Source of the DNA: an uncultured delta proteobacterium | Lineage (GTDB): Bacteria > Myxococcota_A > Polyangia > Haliangiales > Haliangiaceae | DNA length: 64,000 bases | NCBI GenBank assembly: GCA_963848295.1 | Contig: CAWKDB010000010.1 | Location: 4,544,001-4,608,000, forward strand | Reading direction: 5' to 3' | Part shown: positions 5,725-50,977 of the stretch, piece by piece | Layout of the letters: each line of letters opens with the position of its first letter | Position numbering within the stretch: the first letter of the stretch is position 1 | Position numbers and translations under genes: made by a program | Notes under the pieces: generated by a model | What the model was told of the DNA's origin: nothing | What the model saw: the letters and a program-made list of their open reading frames with translations, nothing else | Databases searched by the model: none

Positions 5725-6369
5725 CTAAACGTCCGTGGCCATGTGTACCAAGCCCGAGGTTCGCAGCGACGTGCAGTCTCGGCCTCGAGCGATTCGCATC
5801 GTCGAGGTGCCGCTCTTCACGATCTCGCCTCCGGCAGTACCGAACCTGTGTCTGAGCTGTTCGTTTGTGACCGACCGCGTCCCTGCGCGCTCGAAGCGCT
5901 CGGCCGCCCACAAGCCGAACAGCGCCTGACGTCACGATGGTTGGGTCGGTCGACCGATTTTGGTGATCGATAAGCGGGGAGAAAACGATCTTCCATCTCA
6001 CCACCGAAAAAATCTTGGTAGCAGCAGGGCTGTGGAGCGATGTGGACGGGTGCGCGGCCGCGCCGACCTCCCGCGTGCTCTCGGCCGATCGCGGCGCAGC
6101 CGTCCAAGCGAGCGCGGTCAGCCGCGACTAATCGATTGGCGCGGCGCTGGAACGCCAGCGCGAGCGGCTGTCCGCGCGAGCGTCATCGTCCACAGGCCAG
6201 AGCATTCGTTTTCCTGCACCTGTGTAGGCACGGACGCCTGTGAATGTGCAACCTCGAACCGTCCTGTACCCCCAGATGTGATGGTTTCCGGGTTTGGACC
6301 CCAGACGGACAATGATCAATATATGCCGAATCATTTGACAGATCGTCGACGTAAGAGAGACTTGTCTTT

Positions 6370-7100
6370 GTGGTGTCATCTTCGAACAAACGCCAGTTGA
6401 CGGTTCCCCGCTTCGACAAGAACGGGCAGCGACGCGTCGGTCCGCATCCCGGTGCGGGGCGCAAACCGAAGGGGCCCCGCGCTGGCGTGACACACGCTCG
6501 GCGCGCCGAGCTCGATCCGAGCAAGCCGCTTCACATCACATTGCGCGTTGTCGCCGCAGTCGCCGCTTTGCGCTCGGAGAAGACCTATCGCGCGATCCGC
6601 CGCGCACTCGTCGTCACCGCGTCTAACCAGCTCGGCTTCCGCATCGTGCACTTCAGCGTTCAGCGCAACCACGTCCACCTGATCTGCGAAGCCGACGACA
6701 AGCGCTCGCTCGCCCGCGGCATGCAGAGCTTCAAGATCTCGGCTGCGAAACAGCTCAACCACGAGCTGCGCCGCCACGGCACCGTGTCTCCGACCGCTAT
6801 CACGTCGAGATCCTCGGTACGCCGACGCAGGCGAGCCACGCGATCAGCTACGTCTTGAACAATTGGCGCAAGCACGGCGAGCACCGAAACACGGTGGGGC
6901 TCTATCGCGGTCGCATCGATCCGTACTCTAGCGGGGCCCAATTCTACGGCTGGTCTGCGCGGCGCTGGCGCACGAGCATCTATCCCGAAGGTTACGAGCG
7001 CGCCGCGATCGCCGCGCCGCTCACGTGGATGCACGGCGTCGGCTACCTCCGCGGCAGCCCGATCAGCGTGTTCGCGGTGCCGAGCCGGCGAGCCATGTAG
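6370..7100 (+). mobile_element. REP-associated tyrosine transposase (RAYT/TnpA-REP, HUH Y1 family), frameshifted near 6787
   Basis: LHITLR, HFSVQRNHVHL (HUH), then GTV[F]SDRYH and catalytic-type YVLNNWRKH once one T is restored; ORFs 6370..6858 and 6855..7100. Confidence 0.85.
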
Positions 7101-8646: not shown

Positions 8647-9378
8647 TCAGAACGCGGCCGGATCGATCCAGGTGTCCATGTTCGGTCGTGTCCCGGTCAA
8701 CGTCCGACGCACGACGGGATCGCCACCCTCGGCGAGTCCTTCGTACGTTCCTGCGCCACGAAGCGAGACCTGGTCGGGACCGAACCGCGCGATCGGTCCG
8801 CGCGCCCGTGCATGCTGGTAGTAGAGCGCGTGGTCGAACTCCGCCCACAGCGGACACGTGCCGTCGTGAACGTGCACGGTCGGAAAATACAGCGCGTGCG
8901 CAGCGCGGGTCGCGAACTGGAGCCCCATCGGATGGATCGTCGCGACACCCGGCGCGAGCTGGAACACCGCGAAGCCGTAATCGGCGTACTCCGGCACCGC
9001 GGCGAACACCGCGTCGCCGACCCGAAACTGCGGATCGAGCCGCGCGAAGTCCCTCGGCGCCGGCACGTACGACGCGACGAACGAGCCGACCCGGTGCACG
9101 GACAGCGTTGGCCGGCCCTGCAAGAGCATGAGATCCTGCCGCTCGAACAGCTGCGCGAGATCGTCGAACATGCGCGCATGCCGCGACAGATCGACGAACC
9201 GCACCGCGTCCTCGCCGCTCCCCGGCACGATCGGCAGCGGTAGCACCATCGCCACCGGCTCCGCCGCGTCGAGCGCCATGCTGTACGCCAGCGCCTGCCA
9301 GCCCGGCTCCTCTTCGATCAGACGGGCGAAGATCTTCGTATGGGAGACATCGCGGACCTTGCCCGAGAAGATGCACAT
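8647..9378 (-). CDS. Conserved hypothetical protein
   Basis: Protein-like composition (MCIFS...AMVLPLP...HPMGLQF...LYFPTVHVHDG); TAGAGT-N6-ATG start. Confidence 0.75.
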   Translation of the reverse strand: MCIFSGKVRDVSHTKIFARLIEEEPGWQALAYSMALDAAEPVAMVLPLPIVPGSGEDAVRFVDLSRHARMFDDLAQLFERQDLMLLQGRPTLSVHRVGSFVASYVPAPRDFARLDPQFRVGDAVFAAVPEYADYGFAVFQLAPGVATIHPMGLQFATRAAHALYFPTVHVHDGTCPLWAEFDHALYYQHARARGPIARFGPDQVSLRGAGTYEGLAEGGDPVVRRTLTGTRPNMDTWIDPAAF

Positions 9379-40045: not shown

Positions 40046-40632
40046 GACGCCGGACGCGTCCGTCGGGGAAGCGCAGTCACGGCGCGCTGTGGTCGATCAT
40101 CTACATCGATCTGATGACGCAGATCATGGCGTTCTTCGTGATCGTCTGGGCGGTCGAGCACGGCACGAAGCTGTTGAAGACGCCGAACCTCGGCACCGGC
40201 GTCGGCATGGGCGACCAGACCGCGCGCATGGTCGACTTGCCGGGCGACGTGTTGTTCGCGTCCGGCCAGGTCGCGATGGCGCCCGAGGGCAAGGCGATCC
40301 TCGACAAGCTGTTCGGCGACGAGGCGAGCGGTGTGCTGAGCTTCGATCAAGGCGGGCTCGCCGATCGCAAGCTGGTCATCCACGGCCACACCGACGACGT
40401 CGGGCCGAAAGACAAGAACCTCGAGCTCGGCTATCAACGCGCGTATGCGGTGTACGAAGAGATCAAGAAGCACTCGAAGGAGCTGCCCGATCACGTGATC
40501 CTGTGCACCCACGCCGATAACACCCCGGCGCAGAGCCTGTCCGGCGACAAGGAAGCGGCGCGCGCCAAGAATCGGCGGATCACGATCGAGGATCTCGTGG
40601 TCGCCAAACCATCGGCTGCCCAAGCGCGATGA
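40042..40632 (+). CDS. MotB-like protein with OmpA-type peptidoglycan-binding domain
   Basis: TM WSIIYIDLMTQIMAFFV with conserved Asp; GHTD, QRAYAV and NRRI motifs. Confidence 0.88.
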   Translation: MRRRTRPSGKRSHGALWSIIYIDLMTQIMAFFVIVWAVEHGTKLLKTPNLGTGVGMGDQTARMVDLPGDVLFASGQVAMAPEGKAILDKLFGDEASGVLSFDQGGLADRKLVIHGHTDDVGPKDKNLELGYQRAYAVYEEIKKHSKELPDHVILCTHADNTPAQSLSGDKEAARAKNRRITIEDLVVAKPSAAQAR

Positions 40633-42248
40633 CCGGGTTCGGGCTCAAGAGCGCGAGTGCGATCGTCGTGGCGGGGTTGCTCGTCGCGATCGCGGCCGTG
40701 CGCGGAGCGCTCGCGCCCGAGCATCTCGCGCATCTCGGTGCGCCGGCGTGCTGGACGATCGGGCTCGTCGCCGCGCTCGGCACCGCGCTCGTGATGCAAG
40801 GGTGGCACCCGGCGGTCGCGAGCCGCACCGCGATCGCGCTGCACGCACACCGGCTCGCGATCATCGAGGGTGTGGTGCCCCGCGAGCTGCCCGCGTTCGC
40901 CCAGCGCGCCTTGTTGTTCATCGGCATCGCGTGCGTCGCGGTCAGCGCGCTCGGCAATCACGCGGCGGCCAAGCTCGCGGCGCTGCCCGGCGAGCTCGCG
41001 TCTCCATCACCGTCGCGCTACTGCTTGCCGAAGGTCGCGGCGGCACCCGCGGCCAAAGCTGCGCCAGCGCCGGTGCCGATCGAGCAACCAGGCTGCGCGC
41101 TCGTCAAGCGCGCGTTCCAGCTCGGCTACGCGAAGACGCTCGGCTCGTGTGCGCCGAAGGTCGCGGTGGCGACGCCCGACGCGCCGGTCGCGACGAAGCC
41201 CGAGGTCTGCGAGCGGCGTCAGCTCGACGAGCCGTTCCTGCACTTCGCGGCGCGGCGGCTCGCCGGCGCGTTCGGCGATGCCGTCGCGGAGTCGCCGATC
41301 GCGCGGATCGAGCATCGCGCCGCCGACGTGCGCACCCACATCGATTACCTCGGCGGCCTCGTCGCTGATATCCACTCCGCGATCGAGGGCAGCCCGCACG
41401 CGGCGCATCACATCTGGATCAACCTGCCCGATCCGCATCCCACGAAGCTGATCGAGCACTTCACCGGCGAGCCGCGCTGCTCGACCCGGTTCGCGAGCCT
41501 CCCGCTGTGGCCGAGCTGGCACGCGGGTGACGAGTCGCGCGTCGTCGAGCACGTGCTCGGCCAGCTGTTGTTCGCGACGCGGTTTGGCACGACCGCGAGC
41601 TGCAACGACTACACGATCCATTGGGATGCACCGGCGGATGCGTGCGCCAAGTTGCGCGCGGCACCGACCACATTTGCCACGGCGAGCGTCGGCGCGGTGC
41701 TCGATCGCCGGAAACGTCAACTCGAGCTCGGCGAGCTCGCGAAGCGCCTCGGCCGCACGCCACCGCTCGCTCCGCCGCCGGCCGATGCGATCGTCAGCTT
41801 CGCGTGTCTCTCGGTCGGCGCGGCGAAGCCGGCGACCGGCACGACCGTGCAGATCGACGGCGAGACGATCAGCGTGCGCGAGGTCGGCATCGCGGCGGTG
41901 AAGCCGACCGGTGACGGTCCGATCGATGTCTACCTCGCGCTCGCGGCGATGCTCGGCGGTACCGCCGTCTTGCCGGCACCACGCGGCGCCGCGCCGACGC
42001 CGGCCGAGCTCGACGGCGACGACTTCTCGCTGACCCGCCTCGACGCGCTCACGTTCGCGGATCCGTTCTATGGAACCGCACCGCCATCCGGCGGTGCTGA
42101 CGGCGCGGGGCAGGCCCGCACCGTCGAGGGCACGCGGTGGCCGCTCGATCGCCCCGATCTGGTCCCGGTGTTTCCGTTCGAGCCTCATCTCCACGCGTTC
42201 ATCGAGACGTTTCGCCGCGGCTATCTCGCACAACGAGGTCGACTGTGA
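40629..42248 (+). CDS. Membrane protein with large Cys-containing extracytoplasmic domain
   Basis: About three N-terminal TMs; ATGA/GTGA coupling at both ends. Confidence 0.75.
   Translation: MTGFGLKSASAIVVAGLLVAIAAVRGALAPEHLAHLGAPACWTIGLVAALGTALVMQGWHPAVASRTAIALHAHRLAIIEGVVPRELPAFAQRALLFIGIACVAVSALGNHAAAKLAALPGELASPSPSRYCLPKVAAAPAAKAAPAPVPIEQPGCALVKRAFQLGYAKTLGSCAPKVAVATPDAPVATKPEVCERRQLDEPFLHFAARRLAGAFGDAVAESPIARIEHRAADVRTHIDYLGGLVADIHSAIEGSPHAAHHIWINLPDPHPTKLIEHFTGEPRCSTRFASLPLWPSWHAGDESRVVEHVLGQLLFATRFGTTASCNDYTIHWDAPADACAKLRAAPTTFATASVGAVLDRRKRQLELGELAKRLGRTPPLAPPPADAIVSFACLSVGAAKPATGTTVQIDGETISVREVGIAAVKPTGDGPIDVYLALAAMLGGTAVLPAPRGAAPTPAELDGDDFSLTRLDALTFADPFYGTAPPSGGADGAGQARTVEGTRWPLDRPDLVPVFPFEPHLHAFIETFRRGYLAQRGRL
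42073..42126 (+). repeat. 54-bp double-hairpin element in frame within a CDS (TAPPSGGADGAGQARTV)
   Basis: 44/54 identical to 50724-50777 by manual alignment. Confidence 0.85.
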
Positions 42249-42802
42249 AGGCGCTCGCGCTGCTCGTTATTTTCACCGCGACAACAGCAGCGGCGCCCGA
42301 TCGCGCCGCGTACGTCGGTCGTGCGCTGGCCGCGGTCGAGCAGCTCGGTGCCGGGCGCGACGCGCTCGCCGCGAAGATCTACACGGCGGCGCGCACGCAG
42401 TGTCACTCCGACAATGCCGCTCCGACGATCGCGTGCCTGATCGACGCGGCTCGCGCGCAGTGCGCGGGCGATGCCTCGTGCCTCCCCGCCGCCGACGTGA
42501 TCGCCACGAACTTGCGCTCGGTCGATGCGTTCGTCGACGAGGTCACCCGGGTCCGCTTGCTGCGCTCGAGCGCCGATTATCGCGTCGCGCTCGCCGCCGA
42601 GCTGCGCCGCCGCTACGGCGTGCTCGCCGCCGAGCTCGTGCTCGCGGGCGGCAGCGACGAAGCGCGCGCGATCGACCAGCTGTGCATGCACCGAGACGCC
42701 GCGGTCCACGTCTGCGAGCCCGGCGCGACCGACTGCATCCCGAGCGTGCCTTACGCGCGTTGCGTCGCGGCGCTGGTCTGGTACGTAGGAGGCGCGCCAT
42801 GA
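42245..42802 (+). CDS. Secreted 8-Cys helical protein
   Basis: GTG overlapping the upstream stop; signal peptide; eight Cys. Confidence 0.75.
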   Translation: MKALALLVIFTATTAAAPDRAAYVGRALAAVEQLGAGRDALAAKIYTAARTQCHSDNAAPTIACLIDAARAQCAGDASCLPAADVIATNLRSVDAFVDEVTRVRLLRSSADYRVALAAELRRRYGVLAAELVLAGGSDEARAIDQLCMHRDAAVHVCEPGATDCIPSVPYARCVAALVWYVGGAP

Positions 42803-44034
42803 GTCAGGCCTTGCGTGATCTCGTCCGCGCCGAGACCGATCGGCTCAAGCAAGCCGGTCTATACAAGCGCGAGGTCGTGTTCTCGCGCTCGGGCGGCATG
42901 GCCGCCGGCGGCATGGTCGACGGCCGCGAGGGCCAGCCGGTCGTGAACTACACGACCCACGATTTTCTCGGGCTGTCGGTCGATCCACAACTGCAGCAAG
43001 CCGCGATCGATGCGGTCCGCAAGTACGGCGTCGGCTTGTCGTCGCAACGGGTGATGTGCGGCACGCTCGATATCCACAAGGAGCTCGAGGAGTGGCTGCG
43101 CGGCTTTCTCAAGGTCGAAGACGTGATCCTCTACGGCTCGGGCTATCACGCGAACATCGGCGTGTTCGCGCCGCTGTTCGGCGCGAAGGACTGCATCATC
43201 TGCGACGGCGGTGTCCATCCGAGCCTCGCCGAAGGTGCGCGACTCGCCGGCGCGCGGCTCGTCACGTTTCGTAGCAACGATCCGGATGACCTCGAAGACA
43301 TCTTGCGGCGCTCGCGCTGGGCGCGGTTCCGCGCGGTCGTCACGAACGGCGTGCATCCGTTCACCGGCCGGCTGTCCGACCTCGGCGCGATCTGCGATCT
43401 CGCGGAGAAGTACGACGCGCTCGTCGTCGTCGACGATGCGCTCGGCCTCGGCGTGCTCGGCGATCGCGGCCGCGGCAGCGCGAGTCACGCCGGCGTCACC
43501 GACCGCGTGCACATCGTCACCGGCACGTTCAGCAAGGCGCTCGGCGGCGCGACCGGCGGCTTCGCGGCGGGCCCGCGCGAGATCATCGATTGGCTGCGCC
43601 AGAAGTCATCGCCGTACATGTTCTCCGCCGCGTTGCCGCCGCCGATGGCCGCGGTCGCGATGGCGGCGCTGCAGATCCTCGAGAGCGGCGAGGCGCCGTT
43701 GCCCGGCCTGCGCGACAACGTGAAGGCGTTGTGGGACGGCCTGGTCGAACGCAACTTCCGCGTGCTCGGAACCGGCGAGCATCCGCTGCTCGTGGTCGAG
43801 CTTGGCCGCTACGAGATCCTGCGCGAGGCGATCAACATCCTCTACGACGGCGGCATCTACTGCCACGGCCTGTGCTACCCGGTCGTGCCCGAAGGCGAGG
43901 CGCGGATTCGCTTGATGGTGTCGGCGCTGCACTCTGCCGAGCATATCCAGCAGACGCTCAAGGCGTTCGAGTCGACGAAGCAAGTCGCGTCGTTCGCGGT
44001 CGACGCGATGGACGTGCTGACCGGATTGTTATGA
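42799..44034 (+). CDS. PLP-dependent alpha-oxoamine synthase family (Kbl/BioF/SPT-like), divergent
   Basis: AGLYKRE, CGTLDIHKELE, GTFSKALGG and YPVVP..EARIR motifs; AGGAGG RBS. Confidence 0.9.
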   Translation: MSQALRDLVRAETDRLKQAGLYKREVVFSRSGGMAAGGMVDGREGQPVVNYTTHDFLGLSVDPQLQQAAIDAVRKYGVGLSSQRVMCGTLDIHKELEEWLRGFLKVEDVILYGSGYHANIGVFAPLFGAKDCIICDGGVHPSLAEGARLAGARLVTFRSNDPDDLEDILRRSRWARFRAVVTNGVHPFTGRLSDLGAICDLAEKYDALVVVDDALGLGVLGDRGRGSASHAGVTDRVHIVTGTFSKALGGATGGFAAGPREIIDWLRQKSSPYMFSAALPPPMAAVAMAALQILESGEAPLPGLRDNVKALWDGLVERNFRVLGTGEHPLLVVELGRYEILREAINILYDGGIYCHGLCYPVVPEGEARIRLMVSALHSAEHIQQTLKAFESTKQVASFAVDAMDVLTGLL

Positions 44035-44684
44035 GGCTCGTGCTCGCGTTCTTGTTCGCGTGCGGTGCGGGCGCGACAGCGCCGGTCGCGAATCACACGA
44101 CCGCGGTGACGAGCGCCGAGTCGGTGGAGCAGATCTTGCGCGGGATGGCCGCGGCGTACGCGCACCTCGCGACGTTCGCGGAAGACGGATCGATCAAGAC
44201 GGTCGCCGAGGCTCACGGCGACGTTCGAGGCGACATGCAGTTCCACACCGCGAGCGTCGCGCGGGGCGCGTTCCGGATGGAGAGCGGCGGCGCGATCGCG
44301 TGGTCTGATGGCAATCGCAGCCGCCTCGTCGTCGGCAGCCTCGAGATCCCGCTCGTCGATCGACCGATGAACCTCGCGACCGACGACTTCGAGCAGCTGA
44401 CGTTGAAGCAGTGGGCCGAAGGCGACTCGGAGCTCATGCACCTGACGAACCCGCGGCTCGTCGGTGTGGAGCCGCGCGATGGTGCCTCGTGCTGGCACGT
44501 CACCGGCAACGCGGGGCGCTTCGACGTGTGGATCGATCAGCGCGACCATCGCGTCCGCGAGGTGATCACCCGCGTCGACGGCACCGAGCTCGACACGGAG
44601 AAGCTGATGTACGACGCCCATTTTCGCGTCGCCGCCCACCCGATCTCGACGGCCGAGCCGCCGCCCGCCCAGCCGGTGCCTTGA
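44031..44684 (+). CDS. Lipoprotein, LolA-like fold suspected
   Basis: LFAC lipobox; shares WSDG, G.E..DG..CW and WID motifs with the N-domain of the next gene. Confidence 0.7.
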   Translation: MRLVLAFLFACGAGATAPVANHTTAVTSAESVEQILRGMAAAYAHLATFAEDGSIKTVAEAHGDVRGDMQFHTASVARGAFRMESGGAIAWSDGNRSRLVVGSLEIPLVDRPMNLATDDFEQLTLKQWAEGDSELMHLTNPRLVGVEPRDGASCWHVTGNAGRFDVWIDQRDHRVREVITRVDGTELDTEKLMYDAHFRVAAHPISTAEPPPAQPVP

Positions 44685-46089
44685 CCGCGGGAATGCGCTG
44701 CTATGCTTACGGCGTGAGCAGCGCACGCGTCGCCGTGGTCGGGTTGGTCGCGGCGTGCGCGCACCCGGTCGCGGCGAAGCCCCCGGCGACAGCCGCACAG
44801 GTGTTCGCGGCGATGCGCCATGTGTATGCCTCCGCGACGACGTATGTCGACCACGGCGACATCGCGGCCACCGTGCGCTCGGGCGCCAAGACGCAGACGA
44901 CGACCGGTACGTTCCGCACCGATCACGAGCGGCGCGGTCGGTTGCGGTTCGAGTATCAGGGCGCCGAGATGAGCCATCCGCTCGTCCTGTGGTCCGACGG
45001 CGCGACCGCGACGCAAGTCAGCGGCGACACCGAGAGCGAGCCAGCCTCCGAGAAGTTCGGCGGCTTCAACATCCTGACGAAGTACATCTCCGGGTTGGTC
45101 CTCGGCGAGCTGCGCAACGAGCCGGCGTCGCTCACCGAGGTCGATCACGCGCAGGTTCAGGGCGTCGAGTCGATCGATGGACATCCGTGCTGGAAGATCG
45201 CGGGCGCCGTTCACGGCGGAGCGCGGACCCTGTGGGTGGATCAGAGCAGCTTTGTCGTGCGCAAGCTGACCGAGCACGACCGGATCTCGGCGAGTGAGTC
45301 GGCCGACGTCGACCTGATGGCGCACTACGTGCCCGAGCTCGATGTCGCGATCGCGTCGGGCCGGCTCGATCGTCCAGCGCCCGATCCGCCACGCGAGCCT
45401 GAGCACCCGCAGTGGATCGGCGTCGGCTTTCATTCGGGCGGGGCGACGGTCGATCGCGTCTACAAAGACTCGCCGGCCGACACCGCGGGCTTTCGAGCCG
45501 GCGACGAGATCAAGAAGCTCGACGGTCAGCTGATCGACGTCACCAAGTTTCGCGAAGCGATGGCGACGTCGAGACCCGGCGCGGCGTTCGCGGTCACGGT
45601 CGAACGTGCGGGCCAAGAAGTCACGCTCCACGTCGCGCCGGCTCCGCGGCCCGAGCTCGCGACGTTGCAGCAAGGCCTCGTCGACAAGCCGGCGCCGCCG
45701 TTCGCGCTCGCGCGGATTTCCGGAACCGCGTCGCCGAAGCTCGCGGACCTCGCGGGCAACGTCGTCGTCGTCGACTTCTGGGCGACGTGGTGCGGTCCAT
45801 GTCGGATGTCGATGCCGCATCTCGACGCACTGTCCGCGAAGTACGCGACGAAAGGCCTGCGGATCATCGGCGTCACCGACGAGGACGCGGCGACGGTCAA
45901 CGAGTTCTTGAAGGCGAACCCGGTCGGCTACACGCTCGCGACCGATCCCGACGACGCGATCGCGAGCGCGTACCTCGTCCAAGGCTTGCCGACGTTGATG
46001 GTGCTCGATCGCTCCGGCGTCGTGCGTTACGAGCAAGTCGGCGTCGGCGACTTCGCCGCGCTCGACGGCGAGATCGCCGAGCTCCTCGC

Positions 46090-48251
<2,162 letters not shown>

Positions 48252-48255
<4 letters not shown>

Positions 48256-48485
48256 GGGTCGTCGATCCGGATCTGCGCCGCTTCGCTGCGTCGCATCGAC
48301 CATTGGCCGCCGCGGACCTCGATCTGGAGCGGGTCACCGAGCGGCGCGATCGCGACGATCCGCACGCCGATGCCAGGAACGAGCCCCATCTCGAGCAGGC
48401 GGCGTCGAAAGCTCCGCGTGCCATCGACCGCGCGGACCGTCGCGACCTGGCCGAGCGGGATCTCGGCGAGCGAGCGCGACGACAT
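48252..48485 (-). CDS. feoA: Ferrous iron transport protein A
   Basis: RRRLLEMGLVPG and APLGDP motifs. Confidence 0.93.
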
Positions 48486-48503
48486 GATCCAGCGGTAGCA
48501 TTC

Positions 48504-48520
48504 TTGAAAATCGTTTTCAA
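48504..48520. promoter_or_regulatory. Fur-box-like palindrome upstream of feoAB
   Basis: TTGAAAA-TCG-TTTTCAA, AT-rich, 18 bp upstream of the feoA ATG. Confidence 0.8.
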
Positions 48521-48539
48521 CTTCAAATCCAGAACCTTG

Positions 48540-48608
48540 CCCGGGACGGAGTAACCTTTGACACCTTGCGCCCCGGTGTCTGGTGTCAAAGGTTACTCCG
48601 TGCCCGGG
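48540..48608. repeat. Inverted pair of the GGGACG-N8-TTTGACACC repeat
   Basis: acggagtaacctttgacacc (48546-48565) and its exact reverse complement (48582-48601), 16-nt loop. Confidence 0.92.
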
Positions 48609-48660
48609 TATGTGCCCGAGATCGCACGATCTGGCGCAAATCTCGCGCGAGCCATCCGCG

Positions 48661-49218
48661 ATGCTAAATTCGAAGAGCGTGGACGCCGCTAACACATTGC
48701 TGCTCAATCAGGGGTTCGAGCCGATCAAGGTGATCTCGTGGCAGCGCGCGATCAGCTTGTTGTTCCTCGGCAAGGTCGAGGTCATCGAGGAATACGCCCA
48801 CGACATCCGGTCGGTGAACCTCGTGATCAAAGTACCTGCGGTCGTCCGGTTGCTGCGCGCGTTTCGCCGCCACGCGCGGCCCGTGAAGTTCTCCCGCGTC
48901 AACATCTACGCGCGCGATCACTACAAGTGCCAGTACTGCGGCAAGAAGGCGTCGCTGACCGAGCTGACCTACGACCACGTCGTGCCGCGGTCGCGCGGTG
49001 GACTCACCGACTGGATGAACATCGTCACCTGCTGCTACATCTGCAATCGCAAGAAGGGTGGGCGCACGCCGCAGGAAGCCGGCATGCGGTTGCTCGCTCA
49101 GCCCGCGCAACCGAACTGGGTGCCCGCGATCACGATCCGGATCTCGCTGCGCTCGGTGCCCGAAGCGTGGCGCGACTACTTGTATTGGACCGGCGAGCTC
49201 GACGCGTCGCCCGGCTAG
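48661..49218 (+). CDS. HNH endonuclease (McrA-like, Zn-binding)
   Basis: RDHYKCQYCG, DHVVPRSRGG and CCYICNRKKG motifs. Confidence 0.93.
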   Translation: MLNSKSVDAANTLLLNQGFEPIKVISWQRAISLLFLGKVEVIEEYAHDIRSVNLVIKVPAVVRLLRAFRRHARPVKFSRVNIYARDHYKCQYCGKKASLTELTYDHVVPRSRGGLTDWMNIVTCCYICNRKKGGRTPQEAGMRLLAQPAQPNWVPAITIRISLRSVPEAWRDYLYWTGELDASPG

Positions 49219-49221
49219 ACG

Positions 49222-49337
49222 TGGGGACGCTGTCTCTATTGTCAACTTAGGCGGCTAAGTCACGGATTCGTGGTGACGACCGAGTTGGATCGTGGTGACG
49301 AGAGGGGAGTAAGTTGACAAAAGAGACAGCGTCACCA
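49222..49337. repeat. Inverted pair of the GGGACG-N8-WTTGTCAAC repeat
   Basis: tggggacgctgtctctattgtcaactta (49222-49249) vs taagttgacaaaagagacagcgtcacca (49310-49337), 26/28 complementary. Confidence 0.93.
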
Positions 49338-49357
49338 TTCGATGTAGTCTGCGCGGG

Positions 49358-50977
49358 ATGACCGTCCAGACGATCGCGCACGCCGCTCGCGACCTTGCCG
49401 ACCGCGCGATCGCCGCCGCTCGCGCCTTGCCCGGGGACCCCGACGATCGTCAGGTCGTCGTCGAGAAGGTCGCGTATGCCGCGACCGAAGCGCGCGTGAT
49501 CGACGAGCTCGTCGCAACGCCGGCGGAGCTCGCGCCCGCCGCCGCGGTCGCGATCGCGGAGCTCGCGGCGTCGCTCCGTCATCGCCTGGAGCCGATCGCG
49601 CCGGCCCTTGGGCTCGGCGAACTGCGCTATGGCGATGCCGCGCGCGCTGCGATCGCGGAGCTCGTCGCGCCGTCGGCGGTCGAGGCGATCGGCGCCGCCG
49701 CGCTCGCGGGCATGCCGGCATGGCCTCTCGACGAAACGCTCACCGAGGTTCGCAGCAACGTCCGTGCGTTCGCGGAACGCGAGGTCGCGCCCGCCGCCGA
49801 AAAGATCCACCGCCACGACGAGCTCGTGCCCGAGCGGTTCATCAGCGAGATGGCGAAGCTCGGCTACTTCGGCCTGTCGATCCCGGCGAAGTACGGCGGG
49901 TTCGAGCTCGGCAACCTCGCGATGATCCTCACGACCGAGGAGCTGTCGCGCGCGTCGCTCGCCGCCGCGGGCTCGCTGATCACGCGCCCCGAGATCCTCG
50001 CGAAGGCGTTGCTCGCCGGCGGCACCGAACCGCAGAAGCAGACCTGGTTGCCGCGCCTCGCGTCGGGCGAGGTGATGGCGGCGATCTCGGTGACCGAGCC
50101 CGACGTCGGTTCGGATGTCGCCCAGCTCGCGTGTCGCGCCGAGCGCGTCGCCGGCGGCTGGGAGATCACCGGCGCGAAGGCGTGGTGCACGTTCGCCGGT
50201 CGCGCCGACGTCATCGCGCTGCTCGCTCGCACAGGGCCCGGTGGCGCGCGCGGGCTGACGCTGTTCATCGTCGACAAGCCGCGGTTTCTCGGGCACGAGT
50301 TCACCGCGACCCAGCCGGGTGGCGGCACGTTGACCGGCAAAGCGGATCGCACGCTCGGTTATCGCGGCATGCACTCGTTCAGCCTCGCGTTCGATCGCTG
50401 GCTCGTGCCGGATACCCAAGTCGTCGGCGGTGACGATGGCGTCGGCCGCGGCTTCGCGCTGCAGATGACCGGATTCGCCGCCGGCCGGTTGCAGACCGGC
50501 GGTCGCGCGTGCGGGCTCGCACAGGCGGCGCTCGATCACACACTCCGCTATGTTGCGGCTCGTCGTCAGTTCGGTCGACCGACCGCCGAGTTCGAGCTTA
50601 CCCGCTACCACCTGGGACGGATGGCCTCTCGCCTCGTCGCAGCTCGAGCGATCACCTACGCGGCGGCGCACGCGATGGACGGCGACGACGGCGCGCGGGG
50701 CTCGGACGCCAACACCCTCGATCGAACCGCACCGCCCTTCGGCGGTGCTGCCGGCCGCGGGCAAGCCGCGACCGTCGCGGCGATGGCGAAGCTGTTCGCG
50801 AGCGACGTCGCGGTCGAAGTCACCCAGCTCGGTCAGCTCCTCCATGGCGGCTGGGGCTACGCCGAGGAGTACCCGATCAGCCGTTACGTCGCCGACGCGC
50901 TGGTCTTGCCGATCTTCGAGGGGGTCAAGCCGATCCTCGCGCTCAAGGTGATCGGTCGCGCGCTGCTTGGTTCGTGA
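49358..50977 (+). CDS. Acyl-CoA dehydrogenase with N-terminal extension
   Basis: TEPDVGSD, GAKAWCT, RRQFG, HGGWGY and IFEG motifs. Confidence 0.93.
   Translation: MTVQTIAHAARDLADRAIAAARALPGDPDDRQVVVEKVAYAATEARVIDELVATPAELAPAAAVAIAELAASLRHRLEPIAPALGLGELRYGDAARAAIAELVAPSAVEAIGAAALAGMPAWPLDETLTEVRSNVRAFAEREVAPAAEKIHRHDELVPERFISEMAKLGYFGLSIPAKYGGFELGNLAMILTTEELSRASLAAAGSLITRPEILAKALLAGGTEPQKQTWLPRLASGEVMAAISVTEPDVGSDVAQLACRAERVAGGWEITGAKAWCTFAGRADVIALLARTGPGGARGLTLFIVDKPRFLGHEFTATQPGGGTLTGKADRTLGYRGMHSFSLAFDRWLVPDTQVVGGDDGVGRGFALQMTGFAAGRLQTGGRACGLAQAALDHTLRYVAARRQFGRPTAEFELTRYHLGRMASRLVAARAITYAAAHAMDGDDGARGSDANTLDRTAPPFGGAAGRGQAATVAAMAKLFASDVAVEVTQLGQLLHGGWGYAEEYPISRYVADALVLPIFEGVKPILALKVIGRALLGS
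50724..50777 (+). repeat. 54-bp double-hairpin element in frame within the acyl-CoA dehydrogenase (TAPPFGGAAGRGQAATV)
   Basis: Homologous to 42073-42126; lies in an extended loop before AAMAKLFASD. Confidence 0.85.

Follow-up and report, generated by a model that had tools for sequence, protein, structure and literature searches.

Two copies of a double-hairpin repeat in unrelated genes

The stretch analysed here, hereafter the window, is a 64,000-nt segment of the genome of an uncultured delta proteobacterium of the family Haliangiaceae (assembly GCA_963848295.1, contig CAWKDB010000010.1, positions 4,544,001 to 4,608,000), and it holds two copies of a 57-bp repeat that folds into two hairpins and is read in frame within two unrelated genes. 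The genes and copies, all on the forward strand, are as follows (window coordinates; E-values from a hidden Markov model, HMM, of the element).

40629..42248, +, host gene A, whose 539-aa product has no match in Pfam
42067..42068, +, TC at the left junction of copy A, a position where across the family, in the comparison of filled and empty sites, the C is often brought by the insertion
42069..42125, +, copy A, 57-bp unit in frame within host gene A (HMM match, E=2.7e-13)
42078..42097, +, hairpin 1 of copy A, 8-bp stem and loop ATCC (c-GGAT-g on the reverse strand)
42099..42125, +, hairpin 2 of copy A, stopping at the final base of the 57-bp unit
49358..50977, +, host gene B, encoding an acyl-CoA dehydrogenase whose best relative of solved structure is methylsuccinyl-CoA dehydrogenase 8ciw
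50718..50719, +, left junction TC of copy B
50720..50776, +, copy B, 57-bp unit in frame within the acyl-CoA dehydrogenase gene (HMM match, E=9.6e-16)
50729..50748, +, hairpin 1 of copy B, 8-bp stem and loop CTTC (c-GAAG-g on the reverse strand)
50750..50776, +, hairpin 2 of copy B

These were the only two profile matches in the window. A first-pass annotation made from the sequence alone had paired 42073-42126 with 50724-50777, and direct comparison confirmed that these segments are identical at 44 of 54 positions and share a reading frame, in which they read TAPPSGGADGAGQARTV and TAPPFGGAAGRGQAATV; hairpin 1 indeed differs between them in its loop alone (ATCC vs CTTC), and in hairpin 2 three consecutive pairs are swapped (gcg/cgc vs cgc/gcg). 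The proposed length of 54 bp had to be revised, because 14 of 16 host A homologues have a gap of exactly 19 codons, arrays have a period of 57, and filled and empty alleles differ by 57 bp, which defines a unit of 57 bp, or 19 codons (42069-42125 and 50720-50776). Of the two host names, acyl-CoA dehydrogenase is confirmed; host A has no Pfam match, and “membrane protein” would reflect only its hydrophobic N-terminus.

The broader proposal of a lineage-restricted mobile double hairpin that colonizes unrelated proteins in frame agrees with our census, empty sites, and distribution, and we consider the 57-bp repeat very probably a mobile in-frame element. The checks proposed alongside it returned 196 copies at 170 loci of the genome and, for both window hosts, homologues without the segment, so that neither of the two outcomes named as refuting it was seen; covariation of both hairpins across loci fits a structure preserved by compensatory changes, and in the one host modelled the insertion falls in a predicted protein loop, as anticipated. 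Elsewhere in the window, positions 9189-9225 resemble the left end of the element only, diverging afterwards, and give no profile match.

Genome-wide census and conserved fold

The profile was iterated on the source genome itself (G000; 7.78 Mb, 85% complete), where it matched 174 copies at E<=0.01 and 196 at E<=0.1, with no match at either threshold in a reversed-genome decoy. Based on a hexamer gene caller built for this analysis (6607 genes in G000), 153 of the 196 copies lie within genes, 6 across a gene end, and 37 between genes; by locus, 134 of 170 are genic and 36 non-genic, and 125 called genes carry copies. Among 16 host proteins scanned, those that could be named include ArgRS, EF-G, a PcrA/Rep/UvrD helicase, two Lhr-type helicases, a glycerol-3-phosphate dehydrogenase, a kinase, and a sigma-54 activator, while 5 of the 16 had no match at all. 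Eleven of the 170 loci are head-to-tail arrays of 2-5 units, whose units are 97.5% identical within arrays (36 pairs) vs 73% between loci, and arrays in relatives have a period of 54-59, mostly 57. Copies are mildly clustered along the genome (15 gaps below 2 kb vs 7.7 expected, p=0.01), and adjacent copies resemble one another no more closely than distant ones do (46-85%).

The unit occupies columns 3-59 of a 61-column alignment frame and consists of a leader (GATC plus five bases), hairpin 1 (columns 12-31), one base, and hairpin 2 (columns 33-59); the sequence that accompanies these features is STATISTICALLY. Among 91 full-length, mutually independent loci, covariation is strongest between columns that pair in the stems of the two hairpins, and columns 43, 47, and 49 are linked and mark two subtypes. 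In a 48-copy alignment, which was partly selected by a hairpin-1 pattern, 92% of cells are paired and double changes number 65 vs 18 in shuffled alignments. There are also near-invariant unpaired bases and loop letters. The reverse strand is the more stable one in 75 of 89 copies with DNA energies, and its hairpin-1 loop reads cGNABg, a specially stable DNA tetraloop, in 83 of 91 copies and cGNRAg in only one of 91. An Rfam search of the element returned no family, with three chance matches far below cut-off, and comparison with intron domains gave no likeness.

Empty sites in orthologues and in a sister genome

All 18 readable orthologues of the dehydrogenase (24 loci fetched) lack 23 residues at the insertion site, 19 of them from the element and 4 unrelated. 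These 4 extra residues lie beside copy B (window 50678-50719), and the loop had therefore grown already. Homologues of host A were found in 14 of 80 genus genomes searched; besides those with the exact 19-codon gap, one has a 20-codon gap and one a 7-residue insert of its own. In metagenome run X1, loose contig ends fall at 50718 and 50777, around copy B, and among the matches listed no contig joint bypasses either window copy.

A five-unit insertion is in ArgRS (L272:502-2493; G000 C11:700301-702295), the single match for this protein in G000, where the tandem units add 95 residues directly after the FLGDWG motif, in a loop of variable length among orthologues. None of 13 orthologues carries this insert, and a metagenome contig (run X3) bypasses exactly 285 bp of the gene at a shared CG. 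Data from two unpublished genomes (G010 and G066) enter at L013 (a dehydrogenase orthologue), at L294 (an ArgRS orthologue), and as two rows in the 91-genome tallies given below; the conclusions are independent of them.

For pairwise comparison we used 1.59 Mb from G105, a sister genome with 89% identity, taken as 100 of its roughly 1410 contigs, together with loci L079-L171. This yielded 62 anchored comparisons with G000, 30 of which differ by exactly 57 bp, 13 by 0, and 19 otherwise; the 13 represent shared copies, most of them counted from both sides. A mismatch filter passed 28 of the 30 57-bp pairs, and these form the set of filled and empty sites used hereafter. Shared copies diverge to the same extent as their flanks (9.7% vs 9.9%) and lose pieces, and inserted copies therefore drift.

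Target word, element ends, and a changed flanking base

The empty sites follow the word (R)T-N/G(A), with T in 25, G in 27, and A in 19 of 28 sites. Column 3 is an element base (informative cases 7 vs 0). We found no target-site duplication in either the end-covariation or the empty-site test: across 89 copies there is no excess identity between the ends (59 vs 57.3 expected for columns 1 and 58; 55 vs 55.0 for columns 4 and 61), which, together with the empty sites, rules out a 4-bp TCGA duplication. In G000 at large, TCGA and GATC exceed the frequency expected from base composition about 4.5-fold and GCGATCGC exceeds it 17-fold (the 4- and 6-mers are not above Markov expectation), and the C of TCGA is conserved at 97% vs 89% overall.

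The base to the left of the unit differs between filled and empty alleles. Position N of the empty allele is C in 17, G in 7, and A in 4 of the 28 sites, close to genome background, whereas filled alleles have C at N in 27 of 28, and likewise C at column 59 in 27 of 28. Thus, the flanking base was apparently rewritten with the insertion, and across the family the C of the left junction would often be brought by the insertion rather than by the target. Specifically, the left C is kept in the empty allele in 16 of 27 cases vs 25.5 expected from a genome-wide 94-95% (p=1e-7), and, with two more pairs, in 18 of 29 vs 229 of 255 for local C in the same codon phase (p=3e-4); the metagenome loci provided only two new clean pairs, both retaining C. 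The change is seen in both directions of comparison (non-C in 6 of 15 and 5 of 12). A weaker effect appears three bases to the right of the unit, where T is kept in 6 of 12 vs 10 expected (p=0.008), bases other than T being poorly retained as well, in 9 of 16. The ArgRS empty allele has ATC at the three positions that read GGC in the filled left flank and in every inner unit, and the crossover is therefore placed at the shared CG, 3-5 nt to the left of the usual junction. Together, the rewritten base and this shifted crossover suggest a donor that included the end-to-start junction of the element.

Reading frames and protein loops

Genic loci are mildly depleted relative to expectation (79% vs 90%, p=1e-5), and nearly all of them keep the frame: the length preserves it at 133 of the 134 loci in genes, compared with 27 of the 36 outside them (p=3e-6). 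Four reading frames are in use, and the codon phase of the copies (30/101/3) matches that of TCGA words in genes (24/107/3), which rules out selection for a single reading frame. The frame thus appears to be mostly dictated by the codon phase of the target word and not by the peptide. The sense orientation, which yields DRTAPPFGGAAGRGQAPAV, is nonetheless in excess (72 vs about 48 expected, p<1e-3), and our guess is that peptide tolerance is the cause. Intergenic copies have no strand bias (11 vs 12), and a replication-strand bias was rejected, with none seen on contig C10.

In a predicted structure of the dehydrogenase (pLDDT, the per-residue confidence score, of 66; shallow alignment), the insert is modelled with low confidence as a loop at residues 444-468, flanked by predicted helices at 413-446 and 469-495. 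The 8ciw match is interrupted at the insert, and the match of EF-G likewise splits at its own. The inserts are presumably translated as Gly/Ala/Pro-rich linkers close to neutral for their hosts. The scale of peptide insertion tolerated is illustrated by the 125 called genes affected in one genome and by the 95 extra residues of the only ArgRS found.

Distribution

The exact hairpin-1 pattern was detected in 28 of 91 genus genomes, at 1 to 35 copies, with none for a control pattern. A scan of one genome per species returned 93 stretches, and all but three of the 80 listed belong to Kofleriaceae, Haliangiales, Myxococcales, or unclassified Deltaproteobacteria; the exceptions are two contigs labelled Acidobacteriota with typical copies and one Rhodothermales look-alike. 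The two Acidobacteriota-labelled contigs (L091 and L124) have flanks 72-87% identical to G000 and are probably mis-binned or mislabelled. Viral contigs gave no match to the element. Based on these scans, the family appears nearly confined to Kofleriaceae, to which the source organism of the window would then belong, and its inserts will distort the annotation and the phylogenies of proteins from this group.

Relatives also contain a second element type with a longer hairpin 2 and an array period of 58-59 (L035, L036, L108, L149, and others). Its loci are genic in 4 of 31 cases, whereas those of the 57-bp types are so in 22 of 41 (p=4e-4). Another type of 57 bp (L114, L117, L148) is often genic. 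A tandem repeat family of 59 bp, unrelated to the element, is present in two places with opposite orientations on one locus of another genome (L047:5466-5711 and 8989-9129; G011).

Search for a mobilizing enzyme

G000 holds nine Y1/HUH genes, three reverse transcriptase (RT) matches over cut-off, one IS91-like Y2 gene, and 15 tyrosine-recombinase matches, and has no match to IS110. The HUH or RAYT mover put forward by the first-pass annotation has so far found no backing: none of the nine Y1 genes is flanked by the element (G000 being 85% complete), which also disposes of a REPtron, and across 91 genomes element-pattern counts are unrelated to those of Y1 genes (rho -0.04) as to those of RTs (rho -0.11), in a test where relatives are not independent and the exact pattern undercounts. 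One Y1 protein is weakly RAYT-like (35 bits vs a cut-off of 80). One Y1 clade is common to G000 and G105 and was not found at E<=1e-60 in G070, G083, and G016. No Y1 gene was found among 81 neighbouring or host proteins scanned, and the neighbours of non-genic copies are ordinary genes. Y1 genes have an upstream repeat of their own, unrelated to the element.

Several other candidates were considered and rejected. An autonomous parent with split ends was not detected, as neither G000 nor the loci fetched hold a split-end pair spaced 5 kb or less. An IS1380-type DDE gene 185 bp from one copy was judged incidental, and a retron or multicopy single-stranded DNA source was set aside because the RT matches resemble group II intron RTs by inspection and none is flanked by the element or lies near a copy. 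A search for integron integrases gave no match, although its controls gave none either.

As regards the Y1 genes in their own right, 88 of 91 genus genomes have them, in up to 37 copies. The window itself contains a frameshifted member of the 9-copy Y1/HUH gene family (6355-7100; G000 C10:4550355-4551098), and a long structured region of about 450 nt, also present without the gene, lies upstream of several members. The group II intron-type RTs of G000 lie at C11:619011-620282, C11:721418, and C2:795818, one of them apparently intact and two near-identical and apparently frameshifted.

Possible modes of movement

We lean slightly towards copying-in from a junction-spanning template, circular or tandem, because it is the only reading to explain why the net length is fixed, a base is rewritten, the crossover is shifted, and arrays are exact. 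The intermediate would probably be DNA rather than RNA, and our leading guess for the source of a circle is an HUH protein. The element would then be non-autonomous and spread as folded single-stranded DNA with the help of an enzyme encoded elsewhere, the reverse strand being the folded form that is recognized. The target end would pair over a few bases with the end-to-start junction of the donor, DNA synthesis would pass through the unit once or several times, and the new strand would re-anneal just beyond the unit, overwriting 1-3 target bases, such that the net gain would always be a multiple of 57. In its most specific form, this would make the repeat a micro-element existing as a 57-nt single-stranded DNA circle, which inserts by microhomology-primed copying that overwrites the target and may make several turns, and is a steady source of 19- to 95-residue loops in more than 100 proteins, essential ones included; we offer this form tentatively, as rather unlikely to hold in full.

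Several observations weigh against copying-in from such a template. No enzyme could be tied to the element among the HUH, RT, and IS110 genes searched in G000, and neither a circle nor a free single strand was seen. Empty sites resemble the junction of the corresponding copy only weakly (p=0.02 left, 0.1 right). The empty alleles are taken as ancestral in these pairwise comparisons, and mutagenic excision could produce the same pattern. Arrays can come from slippage following insertion, and 87-nt contigs (57+30) in runs X1 and X2, which are compatible with a head-to-tail junction, are equally compatible with a chromosomal array. The reverse strand is also the more stable one with RNA energies (73 of 89), 19 of the 62 anchored comparisons show other lengths, in most cases a shared copy with small indels or a copy that is partly deleted, and for 26 of the loci counted as genic a called start is no more than 20 codons away, so these may be intergenic.

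An alternative that we consider unlikely is classical HUH “peel and paste”, by which a Y1 transposase acting in trans would excise the folded strand as a circle and join it after the TC on the reverse strand, as a minimal IS200/IS605 derivative or in a REP-like form, the flank changing later through mutation or repair bias. The two hairpins, the DNA-type loop, the lack of target duplication, and the nine Y1 genes with their one weakly RAYT-like member are all consistent with it. However, no Y1 gene is element-flanked, these genes have their own unrelated upstream repeat, neither a split-end autonomous copy nor a count relation over the 91 genomes was found, and the target preference on both sides of the cut and the replaced target base are unlike plain HUH strand transfer. 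Y1 enzymes do recognize single-stranded hairpins (PMC6006769). An RNA route, in which RNA transcribed through a copy would be turned into DNA in trans by a group II intron RT and inserted with short co-conversion, is distinctly less probable. Such a route has been proposed for yeast mitochondrial GC clusters, and the co-conversion of GC42 has been linked to intron-type mobility (PMC4478555). G000 does contain group II-type RTs, and sense-strand copies exceed target expectation; yet G105, which has the most pattern hits of all, has no RT match (90% complete), counts are unrelated, and the element shows no intron-domain or Rfam likeness. Likewise, the hairpin-1 loop fits the DNA motif, and intergenic copies are unbiased in strand.

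A replication template switch to another chromosomal copy via 2-6 bases of microhomology, with the hairpins joining the ends and slippage producing the arrays, would require no dedicated enzyme. It accounts for flank rewriting and arrays, and both the mild clustering of copies and the lack of a partner gene fit it, but the fixed ends, near-invariant unpaired bases, and loop letters are not easily explained, and neighbouring copies are not more alike than distant ones, making it very unlikely overall. Finally, a 19-residue segment kept for a protein or mRNA function, such as a linker or regulatory hairpin, instead of selfish DNA, would be in line with the mild genic depletion and the favoured orientation. 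We find this hardly credible given the four frames used, the orthologues without the segment, and shared copies that diverge like their flanks and lose pieces.

Comparison with known systems

The family differs from miniature inverted-repeat transposable elements in having neither terminal inverted repeats nor a target duplication, the apparent 5-bp inverted end overlapping target bases. It is also unlike integron attC sites, each of which forms one long hairpin with RYYYAAC and GTTRRRY boxes, in having two hairpins and a right end GTCGA. With IS200/IS605 ends (PMC6006769) the repeat shares two single-strand hairpins and the lack of target duplication, but no transposase gene with such ends was found in G000 and the fetched loci, and here a target base is replaced. 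Inspection of the column table gave no clear guide tetranucleotide 5' of a hairpin. CGTC/GTAG repetitive extragenic palindromes (REPs) are similarly short, and some are intragenic; the CGTC class is described as being without a dedicated transposase (PMC3733652), and the 57-bp unit itself ends in CGTC. However, the REP tag stands unpaired beside one hairpin, whereas here CGTC is the paired foot of hairpin 2 and GTAG is absent, and REPs are mainly extragenic, whereas most copies here are genic and head-to-tail arrays are common.

Also comparable is SDR5 (Elhai 2008, via PMC4390886 and PMC5861425), another very small dispersed repeat with precise insertion in a CGAT-containing word, although its target is the HIP1 octamer of Nostocaceae and the (R)T-N/G(A) word here is far looser. 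Yeast GC42 (PMC4478555) also consists of tiny GC-rich adjacent hairpins with a constrained structure, with flank substitutions read as co-conversion and no enzyme of its own; it is organellar, mostly intergenic, and associated with a putative AG duplication, as opposed to a repeat of a bacterial chromosome that is mainly coding and shows no duplication. The double-hairpin elements of Allomyces, reportedly described by Paquin in 2000, form a second such organellar counterpart, and the 57-bp repeat functions much as these mitochondrial hairpin clusters do. In the open-access texts searched, we found no account of the 57-bp family or of such an element in myxobacteria.

The nearest functional counterparts are the Rickettsia palindromic elements (RPEs; Ogata 2000, 2002), in-frame hairpin repeats in unrelated housekeeping genes (PMC10969869, PMC3184786). 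Like them, the repeat described here adds a recurring peptide to unrelated proteins, and as RPEs are described in these accounts the family functions like one without being a member: RPEs measure about 105-150 bp and occupy tens of genic loci, vs a 57-bp unit with two short hairpins at 134 genic loci, and the family resides in a free-living Myxococcota host with exact tandem arrays and a defined T-N/G target with a rewritten base. No Rickettsia was among the 80 listed matches of the one-genome-per-species scan. Since 2000 there has been no settled answer to how small coding palindromes of the Rickettsia kind move, and this family, which offers many pairs of filled and empty sites, ends that are defined, a footprint of base rewriting, and exact arrays, makes the rival mechanisms directly testable. 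If movement through a circle and microhomology proves true, it would represent the first concrete footprint of how an RPE-like coding palindrome moves, and the 57- and 58-bp types would amount to a natural experiment where a single base more or less in length settles a family's access to genes.

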